A DNA stretch of 64,000 nt from Clostridia bacterium (lineage in GTDB: Bacteria; Bacillota; Clostridia; Oscillospirales; CAG-272), in contig JAFVWS010000004.1 in the NCBI GenBank assembly GCA_017501545.1, forward strand, positions 10,515-74,514, given 5' to 3'. Position 1 is the first letter of the stretch. Each line of letters begins with the position of its first letter. Made by a program: the position numbers and the translations under genes. Shown here in pieces: positions 30,651 through 42,122 of the stretch. The notes under the pieces were generated by a model that was given only the letters and a program-made list of their open reading frames with translations, searched no databases and was not told the DNA's origin.

Positions 30651-32414
30651 ATGAAAAGAAAGCTTATTTTGTCCGTGCTTGTGGCTACTGTAGTTATGTG
30701 CCTTTTTGCCATTACTATAAGTGCAACAGCAATTGATACGGACACAACTGTGACTTTAAATGGTAGCTTTACAATGGTGGCAGAGGGTAGCGTTACAAAC
30801 CCTACAGTAAATCTTTATGATGAGGACGGCTATGCACTCGTTTGGTATCTTAATACCGATAATATGCTCGTTAGCGACAGGGCGGTAAATCTTATTACTG
30901 TAACAAATAACAAGGCTAAGTTTAACGACGTGTCTAAGTTTTATGGTGGCTCACAGCAAAAGGGCGTTATTGTAGTTAACCTAAGAGATGATTTTGTTTC
31001 TGATGGTCTATCAACAATTGAGAAATTTGATTCAAATTTCCAATTCGGTTATTATGGCGCTAATAGGAATGTTCCAATTCAGTATTTTTATTTCCCAAAA
31101 ACAGCAACTGAAATTATTGATAGAATGTTCCAAAATACTCAGCTAATTATTGCAGATATTGAGCCAGGCACACCTATTACACGTATGGGTGTTCACGCAG
31201 TTGCACAGTCAAACCTAAAGGAGTTTTTCGTTCCTAACGATATTACAGCATTTGTAGAGCATGACGACGTTGGCGTTTTCCAAGATACAAAGCTTGAAAA
31301 AATCACCTTCGAGGAAGGCTCACAAATAACGGTTATTCCATATAGATGCTTTTATAACTGTAACAATCTAAAGGAGCTTGTTTTGCCAAACTCCGTTGAA
31401 GAAATACACTATAGGGCAATTCAGCTTACCCTATTTGATTCAAATGCTAAGCTTGAAAAGCTTGTTTTGGGTGCTAACTTTAAGGGCTTTTATGGTACAA
31501 CTGGCGATAACTTCTATGTAAGAGGTGCAAAAAACGTAAAGGTATATCTCCCTGCAACCTTTAATGCAGATAACGTTGATGTATCAACGGCGCATCAAAC
31601 CTTTACCCTTTGCCCGGATGCAACCTTTTATTATTGTGGCACAGAGGAAGCGTGGGATGCTCTTGTTGCAAAGATTTCAGAGGGTAAAAACGGCGCAACA
31701 GGCACTGACTCTGGCGAAAATATCATAACTGCAAAAGCAAACGGCAAGGTTGTATTTAATTATAATCCTTGTGATGCCTTTTATAATGGTGAGCACACGA
31801 AGGACCAAGAAAAGTCAAATGCTTGCGTTGAAATTTGCGCAAGATGTGGAAATATGACAATTAATCATAGCAATGAAGCAGAGCTTTCAACCTCTATATC
31901 ATATGAAAGCTTTTTGGCAAATGGAGAAAAAATAACCAAATGCTTAAACGAGGGATGCTCATTAAATACAAATCCTACAGTTGAAACCTTAGCTCCACTC
32001 TTTACCTGCCTTGGCTACTCATTTGCGGAAAACGGTAATGACGGAATTTCAATTGGCTTCTATTCAGATGATGAGGCAATTAAAAATTACGAAACGCTTA
32101 CAGGCGACAAGGTTTCATATGGTGTATTCGCAGGCACAAAGGCTGGTCTTGGTGCAAATGACGTAATAGGCGAGGACGGCAAGGCTGTTGCTGGTGCAAT
32201 AACAGCAGGCTTTGATGGCAGTGAATATTCATATATGTTTATTAAAATGTTCGGCTTCAATGAAGATAACAAGGATACACTCTTTGCAATCGGCGCTTAC
32301 GTTGAGGTATCAAGTGAGGAAGGAAAGAGCTATTCTTACTTACAAGAGGAAGCTCCAGCCGAGGGCGCAAAATATTCGTTTATCAAATATAGTGACTTTA
32401 TAAAAACAGCTTAA
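30651..32414 (+). CDS. Secreted BspA-LRR surface protein with conserved C-terminal module
   Basis: Signal peptide ending ISA; LRR units (CFYNCNNLKELVLPNSVEEI); same C-terminal module as 25973..29245. Confidence 0.85.
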   Translation: MKRKLILSVLVATVVMCLFAITISATAIDTDTTVTLNGSFTMVAEGSVTNPTVNLYDEDGYALVWYLNTDNMLVSDRAVNLITVTNNKAKFNDVSKFYGGSQQKGVIVVNLRDDFVSDGLSTIEKFDSNFQFGYYGANRNVPIQYFYFPKTATEIIDRMFQNTQLIIADIEPGTPITRMGVHAVAQSNLKEFFVPNDITAFVEHDDVGVFQDTKLEKITFEEGSQITVIPYRCFYNCNNLKELVLPNSVEEIHYRAIQLTLFDSNAKLEKLVLGANFKGFYGTTGDNFYVRGAKNVKVYLPATFNADNVDVSTAHQTFTLCPDATFYYCGTEEAWDALVAKISEGKNGATGTDSGENIITAKANGKVVFNYNPCDAFYNGEHTKDQEKSNACVEICARCGNMTINHSNEAELSTSISYESFLANGEKITKCLNEGCSLNTNPTVETLAPLFTCLGYSFAENGNDGISIGFYSDDEAIKNYETLTGDKVSYGVFAGTKAGLGANDVIGEDGKAVAGAITAGFDGSEYSYMFIKMFGFNEDNKDTLFAIGAYVEVSSEEGKSYSYLQEEAPAEGAKYSFIKYSDFIKTA

Positions 32415-32513: not shown

Positions 32514-34646
32514 ATGTTTGAAAATGCGAGCTGGATTGTGCATCCGGAAAATAAATTATATGAGCCAGTGTGCTTTTTAAAGGAATTTAGCCCAAAAAAG
32601 CAGATAAAAAAGGCGACCTTAAATATAACCTCGCTCGGCTGTTATTACCCAAGCTTAAATGGTGAAAGGGTTGGCAGCTTTATCTTAGCCCCAGGCTTTA
32701 CCTCACGTAAAAGGGTACAATATCAATCATATGACGTAACCAAAATGATAAGGGACGAAAACAAGCTTGAAATTTTAGTGGGTGATGGCTGGTATAATGG
32801 AAAAATAAATTTTGTAGTTGCAAACAACGTGCCAAAATCACTTATTTGTCAGCTTGATATTATCTATACCGACAAAACAAAGGAAACTATAGTATCAGAT
32901 GGTAGCTGGCAAGCCACCAAGGACAAATTGCGCTTTGCCGAGCTATATGATGGCGAAATATACGATGCACTTTATAAGGACACACCAACTTGCGCACGTG
33001 TCCTTGACCACGACAAAAAAATAATAGTAAAGCAACAAGGCGTAAATGTAATTGAACAAGAAATATTAGATCCTGTGTCTATTTTTAAAGCGCCAAATGG
33101 CGACACCATTGTCGATTTCGGACAAAACCTAACAGGCTATTTTGAGTTTACAGTCAATGCCAAAGAGGGCGACAAGGTAGAATTTACAGTTTGCGAGGAG
33201 CTTGATAAGGAAGGCAACTTTTATAACGAGAACTATCGTGATGCCAAGGCAAGATTTGAATATATTTGCAAAAATGGGGAAAACACCTACAAGCCACGCC
33301 TTGCATTCTGGGGCTTTAGATATATTCGCGTAGATAGCTTTCCGTGCGAGATAAAGCAAGAAAACATAAAAGCAATAGTTGTCCACTCGGACATTAGGCG
33401 CACAGGCTATCTTGACAGCTCAAGTGACCTACTTAATAAGCTGTTTTCAAATGTTATTTGGGGACAAAAGGGCAATTTCCTTGACGTGCCAACCGACTGT
33501 CCACAAAGGGACGAAAGGCAGGGCTGGACAGGCGATGCAACCGTCTTTTGTAAAACAGCCACCTATAACTACGACGTTGAAATCTTCTTTGAAAAATGGC
33601 TAACAGATTTAAAGCTTGACCAAGGAAAGAAGGGTAACATACCAAACATAATTCCACAAACCGTATGCTGGGACTGGTCAACTACGGAAAACACAGGTGC
33701 TGTTTGGGGTGATAGCGCAACTATAATCCCATACCAAATTTATAAAATGTATGGAAACGTAAAAATACTTAAAAAGCTATATGCCACAATGCAAAGATAC
33801 CTACGCTACATAGGTGCAAGCACCAAAAAAAGATACCTTTGGTATGGGTGTGAGCAGTTTGGTGACTGGCTTGGGCTTGATGCACCAAGTGGCAGCTATC
33901 GTGGCTCCTCAAACGAGGATTTCATTGCCTCAGTATTTTACTATAATTCCGTGAAAATTGTCGCAGACGTGTCTGAAATTTTAGGCAAGGACAGGGCAAA
34001 ATACGACACGTTAGCCACTAAAATCCTTGAAAAGATAAGAAAAACCTTTAAGGAGTATAAAACTCAAACCGAGTGCACTCTCGCCTTGTATTTTAATATC
34101 ACCGAGGACAAAAAAGCAGTAGCTAAGCACTTAAATGATATGATAAAGGCAAACGGCACCAAGCTACAAACTGGCTTTGTTGGCACACCGTTTTTACTAC
34201 ACGCGCTTTCACAAAATGGCTACACCGAAACAGCGTATGATTTATTGCTCAGCGAACAGTTCCCATCTTGGCTATATTCAGTTAAGCAGGGGGCAACCAC
34301 CATTTGGGAGCACTGGGATGGCAAAAACGAAAAGGGTGAGTTTTGGTCAAAGAATATGAACTCGTTTAACCACTATGCCTATGGCTCAGTTGCTGACTGG
34401 GTATACGAGGAGGCGTGTGGCATTAAGCCAAAGACCCCAGCCTTTGGCGAGGTAATAATCGCACCGAAGCCAACTGACAAGCTTGACTATCTAAGCGCCA
34501 CCGTTTATACTCGTGGGGGCAAAATTTTCTCAAAGTGGTACCATCAAAATGGTAAAATCAAATATGAGATTGAAACTCCCGTCAAATCAACGATTGTAAT
34601 TGACGGTAAGGAATATTCAGTAGGAAAGGGTAAGTATCATTTTTAA
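32514..34646 (+). CDS. Alpha-L-rhamnosidase, GH78
   Basis: DFGQNLTG, PTDCPQRDERQGWTGD, FGDWLGLD, GATTIWEHW, MNSFNHYAYG. Confidence 0.95.
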   Translation: MFENASWIVHPENKLYEPVCFLKEFSPKKQIKKATLNITSLGCYYPSLNGERVGSFILAPGFTSRKRVQYQSYDVTKMIRDENKLEILVGDGWYNGKINFVVANNVPKSLICQLDIIYTDKTKETIVSDGSWQATKDKLRFAELYDGEIYDALYKDTPTCARVLDHDKKIIVKQQGVNVIEQEILDPVSIFKAPNGDTIVDFGQNLTGYFEFTVNAKEGDKVEFTVCEELDKEGNFYNENYRDAKARFEYICKNGENTYKPRLAFWGFRYIRVDSFPCEIKQENIKAIVVHSDIRRTGYLDSSSDLLNKLFSNVIWGQKGNFLDVPTDCPQRDERQGWTGDATVFCKTATYNYDVEIFFEKWLTDLKLDQGKKGNIPNIIPQTVCWDWSTTENTGAVWGDSATIIPYQIYKMYGNVKILKKLYATMQRYLRYIGASTKKRYLWYGCEQFGDWLGLDAPSGSYRGSSNEDFIASVFYYNSVKIVADVSEILGKDRAKYDTLATKILEKIRKTFKEYKTQTECTLALYFNITEDKKAVAKHLNDMIKANGTKLQTGFVGTPFLLHALSQNGYTETAYDLLLSEQFPSWLYSVKQGATTIWEHWDGKNEKGEFWSKNMNSFNHYAYGSVADWVYEEACGIKPKTPAFGEVIIAPKPTDKLDYLSATVYTRGGKIFSKWYHQNGKIKYEIETPVKSTIVIDGKEYSVGKGKYHF

Positions 34647-34724: not shown

Positions 34725-36719
34725 ATGAAGAGAAAACTACTATTAGCTTTTGCAATTTCAGCCCTATTAATGCTCGTCTTTGCAATTTCAATTTTTGCCG
34801 CAGAAATTCCTGAGTGGACGGAAATTACCGAGGTTGATGGTATGCCAGATAAGAGCCTATTTGGCACTGATGGAACAAAGGGCGCAACCTCACGCGTTTT
34901 AATGTCCGATGGCATAACATACCCTGCATATTATATTTGCAAAAACTCTACCTCTTTAGGCTTTAGTTATTCTGATTTATCTTCTAAATCAGGAAAAACC
35001 TATGCTGCAAAAGACGTAGTAAGGCTTGAGGTGCCAAACGGCGTAATTTCAACTCCATCAACTGCATTAAAAACGGAAAACGGATACACATCACTTTTAA
35101 CCGTTTCATTACCTGAGGGCTTTACTACACTGGGTGAGTATACGTTTAAGGGAACAGATTCCGTGCCATCAGCACTTGTATCAGTTAGTTTGCCAAGCAC
35201 CTTGAAAACCATAGGACAATATGCTTTTGTTCGCTGTGCTGCTCTTGAGGAATTAGTTATTCCTGAAGGTGTAACCTCTATCCCGAAGGAAATGGCAAGC
35301 TACACCTCGTCACTGAAAAAAGTGGTGCTCCCTTCAACAATTACATCAATTGGAGAGCTTGCATTTAGAACATCAAATCTTTCAGAGGGAATTGTAATTC
35401 CTGAGGGATGTACAACACTTTCAAATTATGCCTTCAAGGAATCAGGCATAACAACTATTTATCTTCCTTCTACTCTTGAAACAGTAGGAAATGATATATG
35501 CTACGGATGCAAATCTATTACAACAGTTGATTCTAAATCTCCTATAATTGGATATCGTATGTTCTATGATTGTGACTCGCTCACCAGCATTACTCTTGAA
35601 AACACAATTGAGATTAGAGAACAGGGCTTCAACAATCCTAACGGTGGAATACTTAACATAACCGAGCTTGTTTTGCCAGAGGGCTTAACAACAATAGGAA
35701 ACTATGCATTTACCAGAGCTAAAATAACTGAGCTTGTTTTACCTTCAACTCTTACTAACATAGGTAAGTATGTATTTCAGGCAAGTACAACTCTACAAAA
35801 GATAGTAGTGCTTGGTTCTGTTTTGGGCGAAGGTATGTTTATGAACTGCTCAGCAGTAAATGAGTTAGTATTAACGGAAAACTTTGTAACACTAAGTAAA
35901 GATGCTTTATCAAACGTATCTCAAACCTCGTTTTTAACCTACTATACAGGTACGGATATTGATAGAATTAAGACAGTTTGCTCTAGCACAACTCGTGTTT
36001 CACAAGCTAAATTCTACACCTATGAAGATTATACAAATGACAATTACACATATAACAAGTTTATGGTAATTTACGACTGCAACCTTTGCGATGTTGCATT
36101 TGACGGTATCCACACAAACCCGGGTGACGATGGCGATTGCACAACGGCTCTTATTTGCTCAATGTGCAATGAATATACGATAAGAGAGGCACTTTCACAT
36201 ATAAGCAGTGAAAGACTTACCTATACAAGCTTTATGAAAGAGGGCGAATACTACGTTGGCTGTACTAACGAGGGCTGTGAGCATGGATCGGCTGAAAAGC
36301 TTGAGGCACTCTTTACATGCCTTGGCTACTCAACGCCTGAATATGAAGGCGGTGCAGTTGCACTTGGGTATTTTGTGAACCATAAAGCGATTGAAAGATA
36401 TGAGGAGCTATCAGGAAATACCGTTAAATATGGCTTATATGCAGCCATTAAGGATACTCTTGGTGACAATGACATTATAGATTCAAAGGGTAACGCTTCA
36501 GCTGGTGCAATAAAGGCAGGCTTTGAAAATAGCGCATACTCAAATCTATTCATTAAAATGTTCGGCTTTGGCGACAAAAAGGATGCAGAGTTTACTATCG
36601 GTGCATACGTTGAAATAGTAAATGACGGTGCAAGCGAGTATAGTTATCTCCAAATTGGCGAGCCAAAAGAGGGCGAAAAATACGCATTTATTAAATACAG
36701 TAATTTCGTTTCGCAGTAA
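34725..36719 (+). CDS. Secreted BspA-LRR surface protein with conserved C-terminal module
   Basis: Signal peptide ending IFA; many LPSTL..IG..AF repeats; LFTCLGYS...FIKMFGF...IGAYV...YSNF C-terminus. Confidence 0.87.
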   Translation: MKRKLLLAFAISALLMLVFAISIFAAEIPEWTEITEVDGMPDKSLFGTDGTKGATSRVLMSDGITYPAYYICKNSTSLGFSYSDLSSKSGKTYAAKDVVRLEVPNGVISTPSTALKTENGYTSLLTVSLPEGFTTLGEYTFKGTDSVPSALVSVSLPSTLKTIGQYAFVRCAALEELVIPEGVTSIPKEMASYTSSLKKVVLPSTITSIGELAFRTSNLSEGIVIPEGCTTLSNYAFKESGITTIYLPSTLETVGNDICYGCKSITTVDSKSPIIGYRMFYDCDSLTSITLENTIEIREQGFNNPNGGILNITELVLPEGLTTIGNYAFTRAKITELVLPSTLTNIGKYVFQASTTLQKIVVLGSVLGEGMFMNCSAVNELVLTENFVTLSKDALSNVSQTSFLTYYTGTDIDRIKTVCSSTTRVSQAKFYTYEDYTNDNYTYNKFMVIYDCNLCDVAFDGIHTNPGDDGDCTTALICSMCNEYTIREALSHISSERLTYTSFMKEGEYYVGCTNEGCEHGSAEKLEALFTCLGYSTPEYEGGAVALGYFVNHKAIERYEELSGNTVKYGLYAAIKDTLGDNDIIDSKGNASAGAIKAGFENSAYSNLFIKMFGFGDKKDAEFTIGAYVEIVNDGASEYSYLQIGEPKEGEKYAFIKYSNFVSQ

Positions 36720-36722
36720 TAT

Positions 36723-36750
36723 AAAGCCACCCAAATCGGGTGGCTTTTTT
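36723..36750 (+). terminator. Intrinsic terminator
   Basis: AAAGCCACCC-AAATC-GGGTGGCTTTTTT. Confidence 0.8.
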
Positions 36751-36870
36751 GCATAAAAATTGAAAATGTGAATAAAAACGTGAATATATTCACAAAAAAG
36801 TGAATAAAAATCAAAAACCAGAAAAAATATTCACAAAAAGGTTGACAAGTATAAAATATAAGTATATAAT
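36748..36870 (+). promoter_or_regulatory. sigmaA promoter preceded by ARG-box-like sites
   Basis: TGCATAAAAAT, TGAATAAAAAC, TGAATATATTCA, TGAATAAAAATCA; TTGACA(36842)-17-TATAAT(36865). Confidence 0.55.
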
Positions 36871-36911
36871 TATAAAACAAAAATTAATTTATCTTTAAAG
36901 GAGAAAAGAAA

Positions 36912-37790
36912 ATGAAAAAGATTATTTCACTTAGCTTAGTAGCAGTAATGCTTGTTGCTCTTGTTTTCTGCTTCGCTTCATGTGGCAAGGACAAGGAATA
37001 CGTTGCTGTTGATGCATCAGACCTTCTTAAGGAGGATTTTGGTATCGCAATAAAGAAGGGCGACACAGCAATGAAAACCGCAGTTGACGAGGTTGTTAAC
37101 GAGTGGGTTGCCAACGGCACAATGCAAAAGTATCTTGATTACTACACAGACCTTGCTGACTATGAGGCAGGCGCAAAGGACACAGCACCAGAGGCAGGCG
37201 ATCTTAAGACAAGCTGGAACTTTGGTTCAAACGGCAAAATCACAGTTTACACAGAGTCAGGCTTTGCACCATTCGAATTTTTGAGTGGTGATGACATTAT
37301 CGGCGTTGACATTGCTATTATGAGCGAGGTTGCTGAGCGTCAAGGTAAGACAATTGAAGTTAAGGACGTTTTGTTTGACACAATTCCTACATGCGTTCAA
37401 ACTTCAACAGGTGATGCAGTTGGTGCAGCAGGCCTTACAATCAACGAAGAAAGACTTGCAGCAGTAGATTTCTCAGCTGTATATTACAGCTCAACACTTG
37501 TTATTGTTTCTCTAAAGGACAATAGCTATGATAGCCTTGCAGACCTTAAGGGACTTAAGGTTGGCGTACAAGAGGGTACAAGTGGCGACCTTATCGCAAC
37601 TGATGCAAAGGCAGACGGACACAAGTATGTAAATGAAGATGGCCAAGAGGTTACAATTAAGGTTGAAATTGCTGAAATCAGCAGATATAAGCAATATTCA
37701 CTCGCTTTCGCAGACCTCAAAAACGGTAGAATTGACGCTATCGTAATGGATAAGCTTCCTGCACTTACAATGCTTAACCTAATTGGCTAA
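36912..37790 (+). CDS. Polar amino-acid ABC substrate-binding lipoprotein (SBP_bac_3), circularly permuted
   Basis: Lipobox FASC; VYTESGFAPFEF, GVDIAI, TINEER...VDFS..YY, VGVQEGTSG, GRIDAIVMD; the usual C-terminal E.FGIA.KKG...NGT segment sits at the N-terminus. Confidence 0.88.
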   Translation: MKKIISLSLVAVMLVALVFCFASCGKDKEYVAVDASDLLKEDFGIAIKKGDTAMKTAVDEVVNEWVANGTMQKYLDYYTDLADYEAGAKDTAPEAGDLKTSWNFGSNGKITVYTESGFAPFEFLSGDDIIGVDIAIMSEVAERQGKTIEVKDVLFDTIPTCVQTSTGDAVGAAGLTINEERLAAVDFSAVYYSSTLVIVSLKDNSYDSLADLKGLKVGVQEGTSGDLIATDAKADGHKYVNEDGQEVTIKVEIAEISRYKQYSLAFADLKNGRIDAIVMDKLPALTMLNLIG

Positions 37791-37854
37791 TAAATGGTTT
37801 AATTCTTAACTGAGGGGCTTTTGCTCCTCAGTTATTTAACGAAAAGGAAAAAAT

Positions 37855-38556
37855 ATGTTAGATTTTATAGAAAGCTTTTCCAAGGCGTTTTTTGTACAAG
37901 GCAGATGGAAGCTTTACCTTGAGGGCTTAGGTAATACAATTATCATAGCGACAATAGCTGCAATTATCGGCGTAATCGTCGGCGTTATATTTGCTATGAT
38001 AAACTACCTAAAAAAGAAGACGGGTAAGCTAAAATTCTTGTCTGCGATTGTAAACATCTATATTACAATAGTGCGTGGAACACCAGTTGTACTACAGCTT
38101 ATGATTTTATATTTCGTTGTTTTCGCATCGTGGGACAACGGAATTATGATAGGCGCTATAACCTTTGGTATTAACTCAAGCGCGTACGTTGCTGAAATTA
38201 TTAGAGCGGGCTTTGAAAGCGTTGACGACGGCCAAAGAGAGGCAGGACGCAGTCTTGGTCTTTCTACATGGCAAACAATGCGTAAAATCATCATTCCACA
38301 GGCGCTAAAAAACTCATTGCCACCTTTGTTCAACGAGTTTATCACGCTTATTAAGGAAACTGCTATTGTTGGTTACGTTGGGATTATGGACCTTGGCAAG
38401 GTGCCTGGTATGATTCAATCAAGAACCTTTGAATATTTGCCACCACTTATAATCTCGGCAGTAATTTATCTTGGACTCGTTATGCTACTTACCTTGGCTT
38501 TACGGCAAATCGAGAAGGCACTTTCAAAAAGCGACAGAAACGGAGGTAAAAAGTGA
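37855..38556 (+). CDS. Polar amino-acid ABC permease (HisM/GlnP type)
   Basis: [49 protein letters not shown]. Confidence 0.95.
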
Positions 38557-39437
38557 TGGATAATGTTATTATGCAAGAAAAACCAATACTTTCCGTAAGA
38601 AACCTTCAAAAGAAATTTGGTCAAAACGAAGTTTTGAAGAATATATCAACCGATATATACAAGGGCGAAAAGGTCGTTATTGTTGGTGCATCTGGCTCTG
38701 GAAAAAGTACGTTCTTAAGATGCCTAAACTGCCTTGAGGATCCAACTGGTGGACAAATTATATTTGACGACGTTGATATTGCTGATCGTCGTGTTAACAT
38801 CAACGTTCATCGCCAAAATATGGGTATGGTGTTCCAACAGTTTAATTTATTCAATAATAAAACTGTGCTCGAAAACATTATGCTTGCACCTTACTTAATT
38901 CACGGCAAAAAATTCAAGAAGGAAAGAAAATCACAAAATAAGGCTGACAAAAAGCTTCTAAAAGAGGCACGTGAGGCTGGAAACCTTGAAAAATACCAAA
39001 GCATCCTTGAAAGAATTAGCCAAAGAAATCGTGTAAGCTATAGACAAATTTGCAAGGAAAAGGCAATGGAGCTTCTTCGCCGTATCGGTCTTGAGGATAA
39101 GGCAAAGGCATACCCTTCAACCTTGTCAGGTGGACAAAAGCAAAGAGTCGCTATAGTTAGGGCGCTTGCAATGAATCCAAAGGTAATGCTTTTTGACGAG
39201 CCAACATCAGCACTCGACCCAGAAATGGTAGGCGAGGTATTAAACCTTATTAAAGAGGTTGCCGATGAAGGAATGACAATGGTTATTGTTACCCACGAAA
39301 TGGGCTTTGCACGCGAGGTTGGCACACGCGTTATATTTATGGACGAGGGAGTTATCGCAGAGCAGGGCACTCCAAGCGAGGTGTTTGATACACCTAAAAA
39401 TCCAAGAACAAAGCAGTTCTTAAATGCAGTATTATAA
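38553..39437 (+). CDS. Polar amino-acid ABC ATPase (GlnQ type) with Lys/Arg-rich insertion
   Basis: [39 protein letters not shown]. Confidence 0.95.
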
Positions 39438-39498
39438 TAAAAAGCCACCCATATGGGTGGCAAATAAAAACAGACCCGATTGGGTCTGTTTTTATTTA

Positions 39499-40029
39499 TT
39501 ATTCAGCGTCGTTTGATTCTTCTTCGTTTGATGCTTCCTCTACTGCCTCTTCGGTAGTTTCCTCTACTGCCTCTTCGGTAGCTTCTTCGTCATCCTTTTT
39601 GTCAGTTACCTTGTCAACAACGTTGTTTACAATACCAGTAGTCTTGTCAACAACCTTGTCAAAGAAACCGCCAACCTTGCCACCAACCTTGTCAGCAGCC
39701 TCGCCAAACTCGCCCTTTTCGCCGTTTCCAGCATCGTCCTTAATTACGCCTACAAACTTAAGTATTGAAATAACAATACCACCAACTATGTAGATGCAGA
39801 ATAAGAACTCGATAAGACCGAGAAGAGCAATTACAATATATGCGATGATGTCGATGAACAAAGGTTCAGTAAATGCAGCCAAAACGCCCATGCCACCCAT
39901 AATACCGCCGATAATAACGGAAACTACGAGATAGATGATTGCGTAAACTACAAGCTTAATAACAAAAGGCTTTGTAACCTTCTTTTCAAGCTTGAATGCG
40001 CCACTATAAAGCTTTCTCAAAAAATTCAT
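39499..40029 (-). CDS. Hypothetical two-TM membrane protein with acidic tail (paralog A)
   Basis: ATG 40029 after AAAGGAGG; MNFLRKLY..., two hydrophobic segments, GGFFDKVVDKTTG, Glu-rich tail. Confidence 0.75.
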   Translation of the reverse strand: MNFLRKLYSGAFKLEKKVTKPFVIKLVVYAIIYLVVSVIIGGIMGGMGVLAAFTEPLFIDIIAYIVIALLGLIEFLFCIYIVGGIVISILKFVGVIKDDAGNGEKGEFGEAADKVGGKVGGFFDKVVDKTTGIVNNVVDKVTDKKDDEEATEEAVEETTEEAVEEASNEEESNDAE

Positions 40030-40125
40030 AGTATATCCTCCTTTCAAAAATAAACAAAAGTGATTGTGTCGAGATGATATTCTCAACAAAAAGTATTATA
40101 TCAAATGAGAAATACGATTTCAATA
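40010..40125 (-). repeat. About 115-bp near-identical promoter/5'UTR/start block, copy 1 (copy 2 at about 40663-40778)
   Basis: Direct comparison shows one mismatch (aaatAcg vs aaatGcg); contains TTGAAA-17-TATAAT, a hairpin and the RBS. Confidence 0.9.
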
Positions 40126-40187: not shown

Positions 40188-40682
40188 TTATTCAGCGTCA
40201 TTTGCTACTTCTTCTACAGTAGCTACATCTTCGCTGGAGTCCTCAGAATCATCCTTTTTGTCAGTAACCTTGTCAACGACATTGCTTACGACTCCAGTTG
40301 TCTTGTCAACAACCTTGTCGAAAAAACCACCAACCTTGCCTGCGGTTTCAACTGCAGTGTTGGGTTCGCCTTCTTCAAGTCCTGCGTTGTCCTTGATTAC
40401 ACCCACAAACTTAAGTATTGAAATAACAACACCACCGAGTAGGTATGCGCCGATTACAGTATACACCAATGCAAGAAGCATGATAACGACATAGCAAACG
40501 ATATCAACTGCTAATGTATCCATAGCGCCAGTTAAAACAAGAATTCCAATTTCAAGTGCGCCCCAAATAGAACCAATTACAAGATTAAGGATTACGTAAA
40601 CAACAAGTCTAATAACAAATGGCTTAACTACCTTTTTCTCAAGATTAAAAGGCCCTTTGTAAAGCTTTCTCAAAAAATTCAT
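40188..40682 (-). CDS. Hypothetical two-TM membrane protein with acidic tail (paralog B)
   Basis: ATG 40682; same architecture and the same NDAE end as paralog A. Confidence 0.75.
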   Translation of the reverse strand: MNFLRKLYKGPFNLEKKVVKPFVIRLVVYVILNLVIGSIWGALEIGILVLTGAMDTLAVDIVCYVVIMLLALVYTVIGAYLLGGVVISILKFVGVIKDNAGLEEGEPNTAVETAGKVGGFFDKVVDKTTGVVSNVVDKVTDKKDDSEDSSEDVATVEEVANDAE

Positions 40683-40877
40683 AGTATATCCTCCTTTCAA
40701 AAATAAACAAAAGTGATTGTGTCGAGATGATATTCTCAACAAAAAGTATTATATCAAATGAGAAATGCGATTTCAATATTTTTTTCCAAAATAATATAAA
40801 AAATCTATTATTTTCTTTTGTTGACAATGATTTAATATCGTGATATACTTAGTATATCAAAATCAAAAGAGGTAGTT

Positions 40878-42122
40878 ATGATTACAGTTAAACCATTTAA
40901 CGCATTAAGACCTACACCAAGCCTTGCTGATAAATGTGCAGCGCTTCCATATGACGTTATGTCAAGCGATGAGGCGAGGGAAATGGTAAAGGGCAACGAA
41001 TATACTTTTTTACGCATTGACAGGGCAGAGGTAAACCTCGAAAAGGGCGTTGATATTTATAGCGACCGTGTTTACAATACCGCCAAGGAAATGCTTGAAA
41101 AATTTGAAAAAGACGGTGTTTATGTAAGCGACACACAAAAAAGATATTATTTCTATCGTCAGATTATGGGTAGTCAGTCACAAACTGGTATAGTTGGCTG
41201 TGCCTCAATTGATGACTACTTAGAAAACAGAATTAAAAAGCACGAGTTTACAAGGGCAGACAAGGAAATTGACCGTATAAAGCACGTTGACACCTGTTCA
41301 GCACAGACAGGCCCTATTTTCTTGGCTTACAAGGATAGCGAAACACTTGATAATATTATATGCAAGCAAACCGAAAAAGAACCACTTTACGATTTTGTAA
41401 GTGAGGACGGCGTGCGCCATACGGTTTGGACAACAGATGGTGAAGCGGTTGATAATGAAATTGAGTGCGCATTTAAGGGACTTGATGCATTATATATAGC
41501 AGACGGACACCATCGCTGTGCTTCTGCCGTTAAGGTTGGCACAAAGCGCAGAGGTGAAAATCCAAATTACACAGGAAATGAGGAATTTAACTTCTTTCTC
41601 TCTGTAATTTTCCCTTCAAAGACACTTAAAATCCTTGACTACAATCGTCTTTTAAAGGACTTAAACGGACACGGGGTAGAGGATTTTCTAAAAATTGTTG
41701 AACAAAAGCTTGGCACCGCCCAAAAATACGAGGGTGAGGGTGCGTATCGCCCAGAAAAAAAGCACACAGTTGGAATTTATGTGGGCGAAAGCTGGTATAA
41801 GGTTACCTTCCATCCCGAAATTTGCTCGGCTGAGCGTGCAGTTGACCGTCTTGACTGCGCAATTTTGCAAAAATATTTAATATCTGATATTCTCGGCATT
41901 GACGACCCACGCACAGATAAGCGCATCGACTTTGCAGGAGGAATAAGAGGTCTTAAATACCTTGAAGAAAGATGCCATATTGATATGCAAATGGCAATTT
42001 CAATGTACCCAACCTCGCTTGATGATTTAATGGCAGTTGCGGACGCAGGCGACGTTATGCCACCTAAGTCTACTTGGTTTGAGCCTAAGCTTCGCAGTGG
42101 ACTTCTAATTCACAAAATTTAA
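40878..42122 (+). CDS. DUF1015 family protein
   Basis: ALPYDV, KKHEFTR.DKE.DR, YIADGHHR, MPPKSTWFEPKLRSGL. Confidence 0.93.
   Translation: MITVKPFNALRPTPSLADKCAALPYDVMSSDEAREMVKGNEYTFLRIDRAEVNLEKGVDIYSDRVYNTAKEMLEKFEKDGVYVSDTQKRYYFYRQIMGSQSQTGIVGCASIDDYLENRIKKHEFTRADKEIDRIKHVDTCSAQTGPIFLAYKDSETLDNIICKQTEKEPLYDFVSEDGVRHTVWTTDGEAVDNEIECAFKGLDALYIADGHHRCASAVKVGTKRRGENPNYTGNEEFNFFLSVIFPSKTLKILDYNRLLKDLNGHGVEDFLKIVEQKLGTAQKYEGEGAYRPEKKHTVGIYVGESWYKVTFHPEICSAERAVDRLDCAILQKYLISDILGIDDPRTDKRIDFAGGIRGLKYLEERCHIDMQMAISMYPTSLDDLMAVADAGDVMPPKSTWFEPKLRSGLLIHKI

Follow-up and report, generated by a model that had tools for sequence, protein, structure and literature searches.

A natural circular permutation in a family-3 amino-acid-binding lipoprotein of Clostridia, with relatives whose chains open at several other points

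INTRODUCTION

Circular permutations found in nature are usually viewed as single ancient events, and permuted binding proteins of ABC transporters are already known in two families other than the one described here. Betaine-binding OpuAC of Bacillus subtilis was compared with Escherichia coli ProX by alignment and is permuted relative to it: ProX residues 154-218 correspond to OpuAC (2b4l) residues 14-77, and ProX 28-121 to OpuAC 164-255, each stretch being weak and the whole-sequence match having an E-value of 1.6e-7. The L. lactis OpuAC protein (3l6g) is collinear with ProX, unlike that of B. subtilis (L230:5133-6125 aligned with 2b4l and 3l6g). OpuAC is a type II (cluster F-III), two-hinge natural permutant with a solved structure that lies outside PF00497, and its cut would be roughly that of the c-d-e-a-b relatives described below, unlike that of the protein studied here. 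Its permutation is not stated in the accessible portions of PMC2861598 and PMC9732360.

The other well-described case is TpMglB-2 (Tp0684) of Treponema pallidum, a naturally permuted, lipid-anchored ABC binding protein for which a 'Cluster Bc' was proposed; it still binds ligand and changes conformation, and its authors suggest a link with membrane anchoring (PMC4990184, in excerpt). TpMglB-2 has the type I/cluster B sugar-binding fold with a fourth hinge crossing, and a single cut site is described in that excerpt, whereas the family studied here is of type II, with two hinges and several cut sites. Within the same protein family, permutation has been engineered: the cpLAO-BP sensors are cut at the hinge and have their old termini joined by a linker, and they retain binding with a ~36-fold lower affinity for lysine (sections of PMC5087393). 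In these artificial proteins one hinge is deleted and the termini lie on different lobes, whereas the cut described here spares both hinges. For DNA methyltransferases, permutation by duplication has been described, with several orders in one family and partial duplicates predicted (PMC3320104, in part). What differs in the present case is that an N-terminal lipoprotein signal has to be retained or re-acquired every time, and that there are apparent returns to the ancestral order.

Canonical family-3 binding proteins such as AncQR (4zv1), T. maritima ArgBP (TmArgBP; 4psh, 6ggv), GlnBP (1wdn) and ArtJ (2q2a) share PF00497 with our protein, with an rmsd of 1.9 Å over ~170 residues, and have in common with it an Arg/Asp clamp, an aromatic sandwich, two hinge strands and an operon with a permease and a GlnQ-like ATPase. 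In TmArgBP, lobe I is made up of residues 23-110 and 210-231 and lobe II of residues 116-203, with hinges at 111-115 and 204-209 (PMC4022495, in excerpt); its arginine contacts are Arg101, Asp183, Phe38, Phe76, Asp37, Glu42, Gln142 and Ser131. A full-text literature search, with most subscription journals outside its reach, listed no publication on a permuted family-3 protein from nature, and no such binding protein is named in the main text of the DomainMapper preprint or of either CIRPIN version. Amino-acid uptake is ordinary physiology. Pfam-level annotation hides chain order in what is a common transporter of gut bacteria.

RESULTS AND DISCUSSION

Organization of the locus

The window, i.e. 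the whole stretch of DNA that was analysed, covers 64,000 nucleotides of contig JAFVWS010000004.1 (assembly GCA_017501545.1, Clostridia bacterium). The features of the transporter locus are collected in Table 1. The initial annotation had described an intact ORF followed by permease and ATPase genes, and this holds: the frame of the binding protein (hereafter the query) is open throughout, and the two following products match PF00528 and PF00005, respectively. Since a likely terminator of the upstream leucine-rich-repeat (LRR) gene precedes it, the transporter would have its own promoter. A role in stabilising or attenuating the transcript is conceivable for the stem-loop that separates the binding-protein gene from the permease gene.

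Table 1. Coordinates of the transporter genes and associated features in the window
Feature	Position	Strand	Remarks
Inverted repeat followed by T run	36723..36747	+	10-nt arms, 100% complementary; likely terminator of upstream LRR gene
ARG-box-like site 1 (predicted ArgR site)	36748..36765		matrix score 11.9
ARG-box-like site 2	36818..36835		matrix score 9.8; directly upstream of -35 hexamer
Promoter of sigma-70/sigma-A type, TTGACA-17-TATAAT	36842..36870	+	12/12 consensus positions; consensus match only
Ribosome-binding site AAGGAG	36898..36903	+	read off the sequence
Binding-lipoprotein ORF	36912-37790	+	open, 292 aa, no interruption
Hydrophobic signal peptide with lipobox FASC (Cys24), predicted lipid anchor	36912..36983	+	Cys24 invariant in 78/78 aligned proteins
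Moved segment e, residues 30-78	36999..37145	+	last strand of lobe II, hinge 2, last strand and helices of lobe I
Linker, residues 79-108, from canonical C-terminus to canonical N-terminus	37146..37235	+	block pLDDT 91-97
Segments a-d, residues 109-292 and stop codon	37236..37790	+	canonical N-terminal part, hinge 1, lobe II to its last helix
Stem-loop in binding-protein/permease gap	37807..37834	+	12-nt arms, 92% complementary, 4-nt loop
Polar-amino-acid ABC permease, single gene	37855..38556	+	PF00528 E 3.9e-25; TIGR01726 56.8 bits vs cut-off 42.2
GlnQ-like ABC ATPase	38553..39437	+	PF00005 E 1.3e-36; top NCBIfam model GlnQ, under its cut-off
Stem-loop 3' of ATPase gene	39444..39461		7-pair stem, listed on minus strand; likely terminator shared with convergent gene

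Several neighbouring features deserve mention in their own right. The ATPase carries an insertion between the Q-loop and the signature motif, the spacing being 99 residues in the window and 56-171 in the ATPases of 73 relatives (67 in 26 of them, 171 in 20). Downstream, on the minus strand, lie tandem paralogous genes for small membrane proteins with acidic tails (39499-40089 and 40188-40742; 62% identity in protein, 75% in DNA); a Pfam search with the product of 39499-40089 gave nothing above cut-off. They are followed by a gene for a DUF1015 protein (40878-42122; PF06245, E 1.6e-107). Upstream (30651-32414, 32514-34646 and 34725-36719), two BspA-type LRR proteins (PF13306) with similar C-terminal regions are encoded on either side of an alpha-L-rhamnosidase-like gene (NF041573, under cut-off).

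The five segments of the fold are all present, in rotated order

In canonical proteins the segments follow one another as a-b-c-d-e, and lobe I carries the two termini. When five segment HMMs, named a to e in canonical order and built from 37 canonical proteins, were run on the query, each matched exactly once (32-62 bits) and the resulting order was e-a-b-c-d, in agreement with the earlier claim that every part occurs a single time. PF00497 matched the query with 73 bits (gathering cut-off 26.4), residues 110-219 corresponding to profile positions 1-98 (E 2.5e-20). Of the two swapped profile matches that the initial annotation expected, this one was clear, but the N-terminal piece scanned alone aligned to positions 97-129 only with an E-value of 0.011, under the cut-off. 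In a search of PDB sequences, query residues 107-287 aligned to AncQR (4zv1) 9-174, and residues 40-75 to AncQR 192-227. The latter match, weak from the single sequence, was strengthened by a profile of 78 sequences (E 0.0016), and reached an E-value of 2.7e-4 when the search started from a distant paralogue that has this order too. The moved segment on its own gave a best E-value of 0.066 against the PDB, with 25 of the 29 matches falling on the C-terminal part of family-3 proteins. A collinear full-length alignment, which had been named beforehand as the observation that would speak against permutation, was not found among the PDB entries listed.

The PDB alignment, the profile and the segment HMMs thus bear out the proposal that residues ~30-78 are the normal C-terminal strand and helices, although the piece begins at Tyr30, before the EDFG motif, and also holds the last strand of lobe II. 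Likewise, a linker of ~30 residues is indeed followed by the usual N-terminus, residues 106-292 matching canonical proteins from there to about TmArgBP 195. The chain had been said to stop right after DKLPA; it ends 8 residues later, completing that helix. All five elements are therefore present once and rotated, segments a-d ending at about TmArgBP 195 and the moved piece starting at 198. No internal DNA repeat was found at the junctions in the gene. The sequence and structure matches listed for the query all belong to type II family 3 or its kin, and not to the type I/cluster B sugar-binding fold of TpMglB-2. Altogether, we consider the ORF at 36912-37790 to encode a real circular permutation of a family-3 (PF00497, cluster F) binding lipoprotein, with a probability of about 98%.

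The predicted structure places the cut in lobe II

An AlphaFold2 model of the query, built with 78 sequences, had a mean pLDDT of 92.4 and a pTM of 0.83, with values above 90 for the moved segment and the linker. Two alpha/beta lobes in a type II fold are predicted, and the moved region is modelled as strands 30-34 and 40-48 and helices 52-68 and 70-85 (pLDDT 94-98). The top structural matches of the model were the closed, arginine-bound AncQR (4zv1; Foldseek, ~184 columns, rmsd 1.9 Å) and TmArgBP (VIA, model residues 105-292 on TmArgBP 25-195, Z 17.6, rmsd 1.9 Å over 168 residues). Both Foldseek and VIA keep chain order and left residues 30-85 unplaced on the canonical C-terminal part, so the docking of these residues is predicted by the model rather than superposed. 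The structural check that the initial annotation had proposed therefore gave a predicted normal fold with a confident moved segment, but not the superposition of the swapped part.

The position of the cut follows from the residue alignment with TmArgBP: Ala32 of the query corresponds to residue 198 in lobe II and Glu41 to Glu207 in hinge 2, whereas the C-terminus maps to about 195. Query residues ~192-197 and 38-43, both strands in the model, align to the TmArgBP hinges 111-115 and 204-209. The break in the chain thus falls in the lobe II loop that separates its last helix from its last strand, between TmArgBP ~195 and ~198, with both hinges intact and the old ends joined by the 30-residue linker. 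In contrast to canonical family-3 proteins, whose ends are on lobe I, both chain ends would lie in lobe II, in an otherwise normal two-lobed fold. A cut in lobe II likely means that the lipid anchor has switched lobes, as the initial annotation had suggested and as this alignment supports; the anchor would sit on lobe II, ~6 residues from the first strand. An ordered linker would bridge the former termini; its residues Pro93, Trp102 and Phe104 are invariant in 78/78 aligned proteins.

A further difference from canonical proteins is an extra beta-hairpin in lobe II (residues ~234-254, window 37611-37673), which is clade-specific and is kept in re-cut and reverted relatives. A short tether after the lipidated cysteine was considered as a hallmark of the permuted form and discarded: the median is 8 residues in permuted proteins (range 6-14, n = 120) versus 11 in canonical ones (1-39, n = 38), the two being measured to different landmarks. 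In one sequencing run, a 6-base in-frame insertion is present in the tether at window position 36985, just 3' of the Cys24 codon, so tether length varies between strains.

The permuted gene is intact and conserved

The order e-a-b-c-d was found in 120 of 120 homologues among the matches listed (1105 matches in all). Of 118 confirmed GTDB loci, 80 were kept; the permease gene comes next in 79 and the ATPase gene in 78 of these, the exceptions ending at the locus edge. Most kept-locus records are metagenome-assembled genomes of uncultured Clostridia or Eubacteriales, many with animal-gut sample names; a few are labelled with other taxa. The dN/dS ratio was 0.11-0.21 in seven of eight pairs (the remaining pair being saturated), and the moved segment is conserved about as well as the core. 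In its own genome (94% complete), the query is the only PF00497 match.

With nearly all close relatives coming from metagenome assemblies, one might suspect an assembly artefact or a decaying remnant of a two-domain gene. This is extremely improbable. Contigs assembled from other runs, none marked as a possible source of the window and belonging to several studies, cover the gene or its junctions (X5, positions 36600-38708 with four differences; X14, 36600-37580; X13, 37066-39259), and no joint was seen in the gene. The misassembly of a two-domain gene that the initial annotation had named as a possible refutation is hence absent. The gene is moreover under purifying selection, and the same e-a-b-c-d order occurs in a single-contig genome, in a protein identical to AGC68677.1 of Thermoclostridium stercorarium, which by its sequence appears to belong to a clade different from that of the query and lies outside the trees presented below. 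It is the order shared by the listed homologues, the bridging contigs of other studies and the dN/dS values that argue against misassembly. In two RNA runs, sampled in small shares, no close contig over the binding-protein gene was found. We are highly confident that the gene is intact and conserved, and predict that it encodes a functional receptor.

A probable arginine importer under predicted ArgR control

Six of the seven TmArgBP ligand residues that could be mapped are kept in the query (F38 = F118, E42 = E122, F76 = F155, R101 = R181, Q142 = Q220, D183 = D280), and each of the six is invariant in 78/78 aligned proteins. The Arg/Asp clamp and aromatic sandwich of family 3 are provided by R181, D280, F118 and F155. 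TmArgBP Asp37 is replaced by Gly117, Ser131 is unmapped, and Glu115 corresponds to a Glu of AncQR. The protein would be expected to close on its ligand as a Venus flytrap in the usual manner: with its carboxyl and amino groups clamped by Arg181 and Asp280, the ligand would have its side chain sandwiched between Phe118 and Phe155, and Glu115, Glu122 and Gln220 may hold the guanidinium group, before the ligand is handed to the permease. Ligand-specific NCBIfam models all scored under cut-off on the query (ArtJ 59.7 against 510, TIGR01096 107.4 against 256.35). The canonical-order relative P0245 likewise scores under these cut-offs, the models being lineage-narrow.

The promoter region points in the same direction. 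With a seed pattern that we assumed for the ARG box and at most one mismatch, sites were found in the upstream DNA of 37 out of 68 loci (those of 67 relatives and of the window, kin that are not independent) and were absent from the other 31; 30 shuffles gave a mean of 6.3 and a maximum of 11 loci. A matrix was trained on 42 sites from the relatives only and scanned over the query's own genome. Among 594 site clusters, that of argG ranked first and that of the query promoter fourth; no arginine gene was identified at ranks 2 and 3. The window sites are weak, with 11.9 and 9.8 versus 20.6 at argG, which has a similar site before its -35, as is the case for window site 2. ArgR is encoded in the same genome. 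The ARG boxes of E. coli artJ, artP and hisJ are semi-palindromes of 18 bp, located at the -35 element or slightly upstream of it (PMC6640053, in part), and a clostridial ArgR regulon was predicted to include argGH and an amino-acid ABC transporter (PMC3828012, in part). As judged from motifs, the locus thus has ARG-box-like sites near the -35, shares them with arginine biosynthesis and has an argR gene in its genome. As a separate observation, the rank-2 ARG-box-like cluster lies near a contig end (G000:C30:60886-61016).

It is quite probable, then, that the query is the working receptor, with a chain permuted to e-a-b-c-d, of an importer that is regulated by ArgR and whose substrate is most likely arginine. 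For the ligand taken by itself, arginine or a close basic amino acid is the reading that we prefer on sequence grounds, with some reserve. The permuted transporter could be real and yet take another polar amino acid (glutamine, lysine, histidine or cystine) or a broad set, a possibility that we regard as tentative but worth keeping in mind: Asp37 has given way to Gly, the best match AncQR has been solved with arginine and also with glutamine, the top NCBIfam matches are a mixture of LAO, GlnH and cystine models (all under cut-off), and the sole family-3 receptor of a genome might well be broad. It has to be weighed against the enrichment of ARG-box-like sites, their ranking together with argG, and the conservation of Glu115, Glu122 and Gln220. 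In addition, no Rfam family matched in any of 20 scanned loci, so that a riboswitch or T-box gave no clue.

Relatives begin their chains at several points

Five single-domain orders occur among the relatives: a-b-c-d-e, e-a-b-c-d, c-d-e-a-b, b-c-d-e-a and one cut inside segment a, the last being a singleton (P0309). Nine clusters have the order b-c-d-e-a, one of them with 55 members; this form shares ~70-80% identity with e-a-b-c-d proteins over the best-aligned halves. In 33 genomes of the window's genus with a classable protein, 26 have e-a-b-c-d, 7 the canonical order and 5 c-d-e-a-b, counting orders with a missed segment in the nearest class. A class-wide search, in which 20 regions were picked by match pattern and not at random, gave 15 e-a-b-c-d, 3 c-d-e-a-b and 2 canonical cases. 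Searches of 50 genomes from the genus and of 301 from another family did not detect the b-c-d-e-a form, and a metagenome scan yielded one truncated locus. P0243, a relative of this order, was folded from its single sequence with a pLDDT of 34.6, which is uninformative on its fold. P0276 was examined as a recent independent origin of a permuted order and set aside, as it is a single protein on a 1019-base contig that may be chimeric.

For phylogeny, sequences were rearranged to canonical order, and 4 of 182 rows that aligned over too short a length were left out. On a quick tree of the remaining 178 rows, a sample biased toward relatives of the query, 16 order changes were required versus 68.5 in shuffles, and e-a-b-c-d was spread over several separate clades. 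In a careful tree of 52 chosen rows, the query falls in a 36-row clade (98/97) in which all early branches are permuted. Four canonical-order proteins lie in three places inside a 25-row clade (100/99), two starred nodes deeper, and the b-c-d-e-a proteins form a nested clade (100/98) beside e-a-b-c-d proteins. The simplest reading is that the four nested canonical-order proteins are most likely reversions. Their C-terminal tails, as well as that of a fifth canonical-order protein, match a profile of the linker (P0245, P0251, P0258, P0260 and P0539; 7-17 bits); an unrelated protein reached 10 bits elsewhere in its chain, and scores were no higher than 1.3 for the remaining 69 of 75. Linker-tailed canonical genes were seen in the same operon in two genomes.

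The same linker-like tails could alternatively mean that these close relatives are not reversions, and that a linker-tailed canonical ancestor was cut many times at the same lobe II loop. That e-a-b-c-d occurs in other separate clades would fit such a recurrent cut site, and counts of changes on a tree do not by themselves separate gain from loss. Constraining the 32 permuted rows of the 36-row clade together was rejected (AU p 1.7e-5, for a group named after seeing the tree), as both readings would predict. Repeated cutting nevertheless seems unlikely, as the early branches of the 36-row clade are all permuted, the canonical rows lie deeper, and more events would be needed than the three reversions.

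On balance, and with less assurance than for the permutation itself, we favour reversion within a wider scheme: the family-3 gene in Clostridia would behave as a circle with a movable opening that has been re-cut repeatedly, with the anchor moving between lobes, about three returns to canonical order within the clade of the query and the linker left behind as a C-terminal scar. Re-cutting would have kept the signal peptide, the pocket and the cognate permease while producing at least five chain orders. Closely related proteins that share their partners differ only in where the chain starts. If the scheme is true, they form an orthologous permutant series, some members ~75-80% identical, with which one could examine how permutations become established and what influence, if any, chain order has on folding, export or transport. 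Such matched natural pairs would make the ideas of permutation by duplication and of anchoring favouring a topology testable. They would also provide a common biosensor scaffold, in which engineered permutation costs affinity, with a linker and with cut sites that evolution has already tested.

Origin of the permuted chain

The initial annotation had put forward an origin by tandem-domain duplication and trimming, and had called for homologues and tandem intermediates. Permuted homologues proved widespread; tandem intermediates were few, and none was close to the query. Among them are two 1.5-copy proteins in clusters of one and two members: P0311 (order c-d-e-a-b-c-d-e, copies 55% identical), which may be an assembly chimera, and P0297 (copies 65% identical). 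P0316, with 9 members, has an internal c-d repeat. No duplicated gene was seen in close relatives of the query among the matches examined; these homologue searches were limited to lengths near that of the query, and longer tandem forms were visible among 150 representatives only. The mature coding region would have been duplicated in frame behind one signal peptide, and both copies trimmed; once the ends had been bridged, further rounds of duplication and trimming probably followed, which opened the chain at other sites and in some cases restored the canonical order. As the 1.5-copy proteins are rare and distant from the query, we infer this route from them rather than observing it, but still hold it to be a likely one.

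The order could instead have arisen with no duplication of a whole domain: the gene may have undergone fission followed by re-fusion, or a segment of it may have been cut out and inserted again, perhaps with tandem paralogues as partners. The lack of a close duplicated intermediate among the matches examined is compatible with this, tandem binding-protein genes of differing orders are common in the genus and would serve as recombination substrates, and b-c-d-e-a is rotated almost exactly, with scarcely a residue missing or present twice. Separately encoded halves were, however, not seen in the loci examined, and the duplicates in P0311, P0297 and P0316 fit the duplication model (as laid out in part of PMC3320104), which makes these routes rather unlikely in our view.

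Some loci show further arrangements of these genes. Tandem binding-protein genes, often of different orders, precede a single permease gene in L017:3038-3898, L021:2936-3826, L053:2974-3807, L102, L106 and L108. In L066:42-1709 and L198, a single reading frame covers the e-a-b-c-d binding protein and its permease, which are connected by a short Gly-rich joint, the cluster containing four fused sequences, and in L225 and L226 the c-d-e-a-b form is also fused to the permease.
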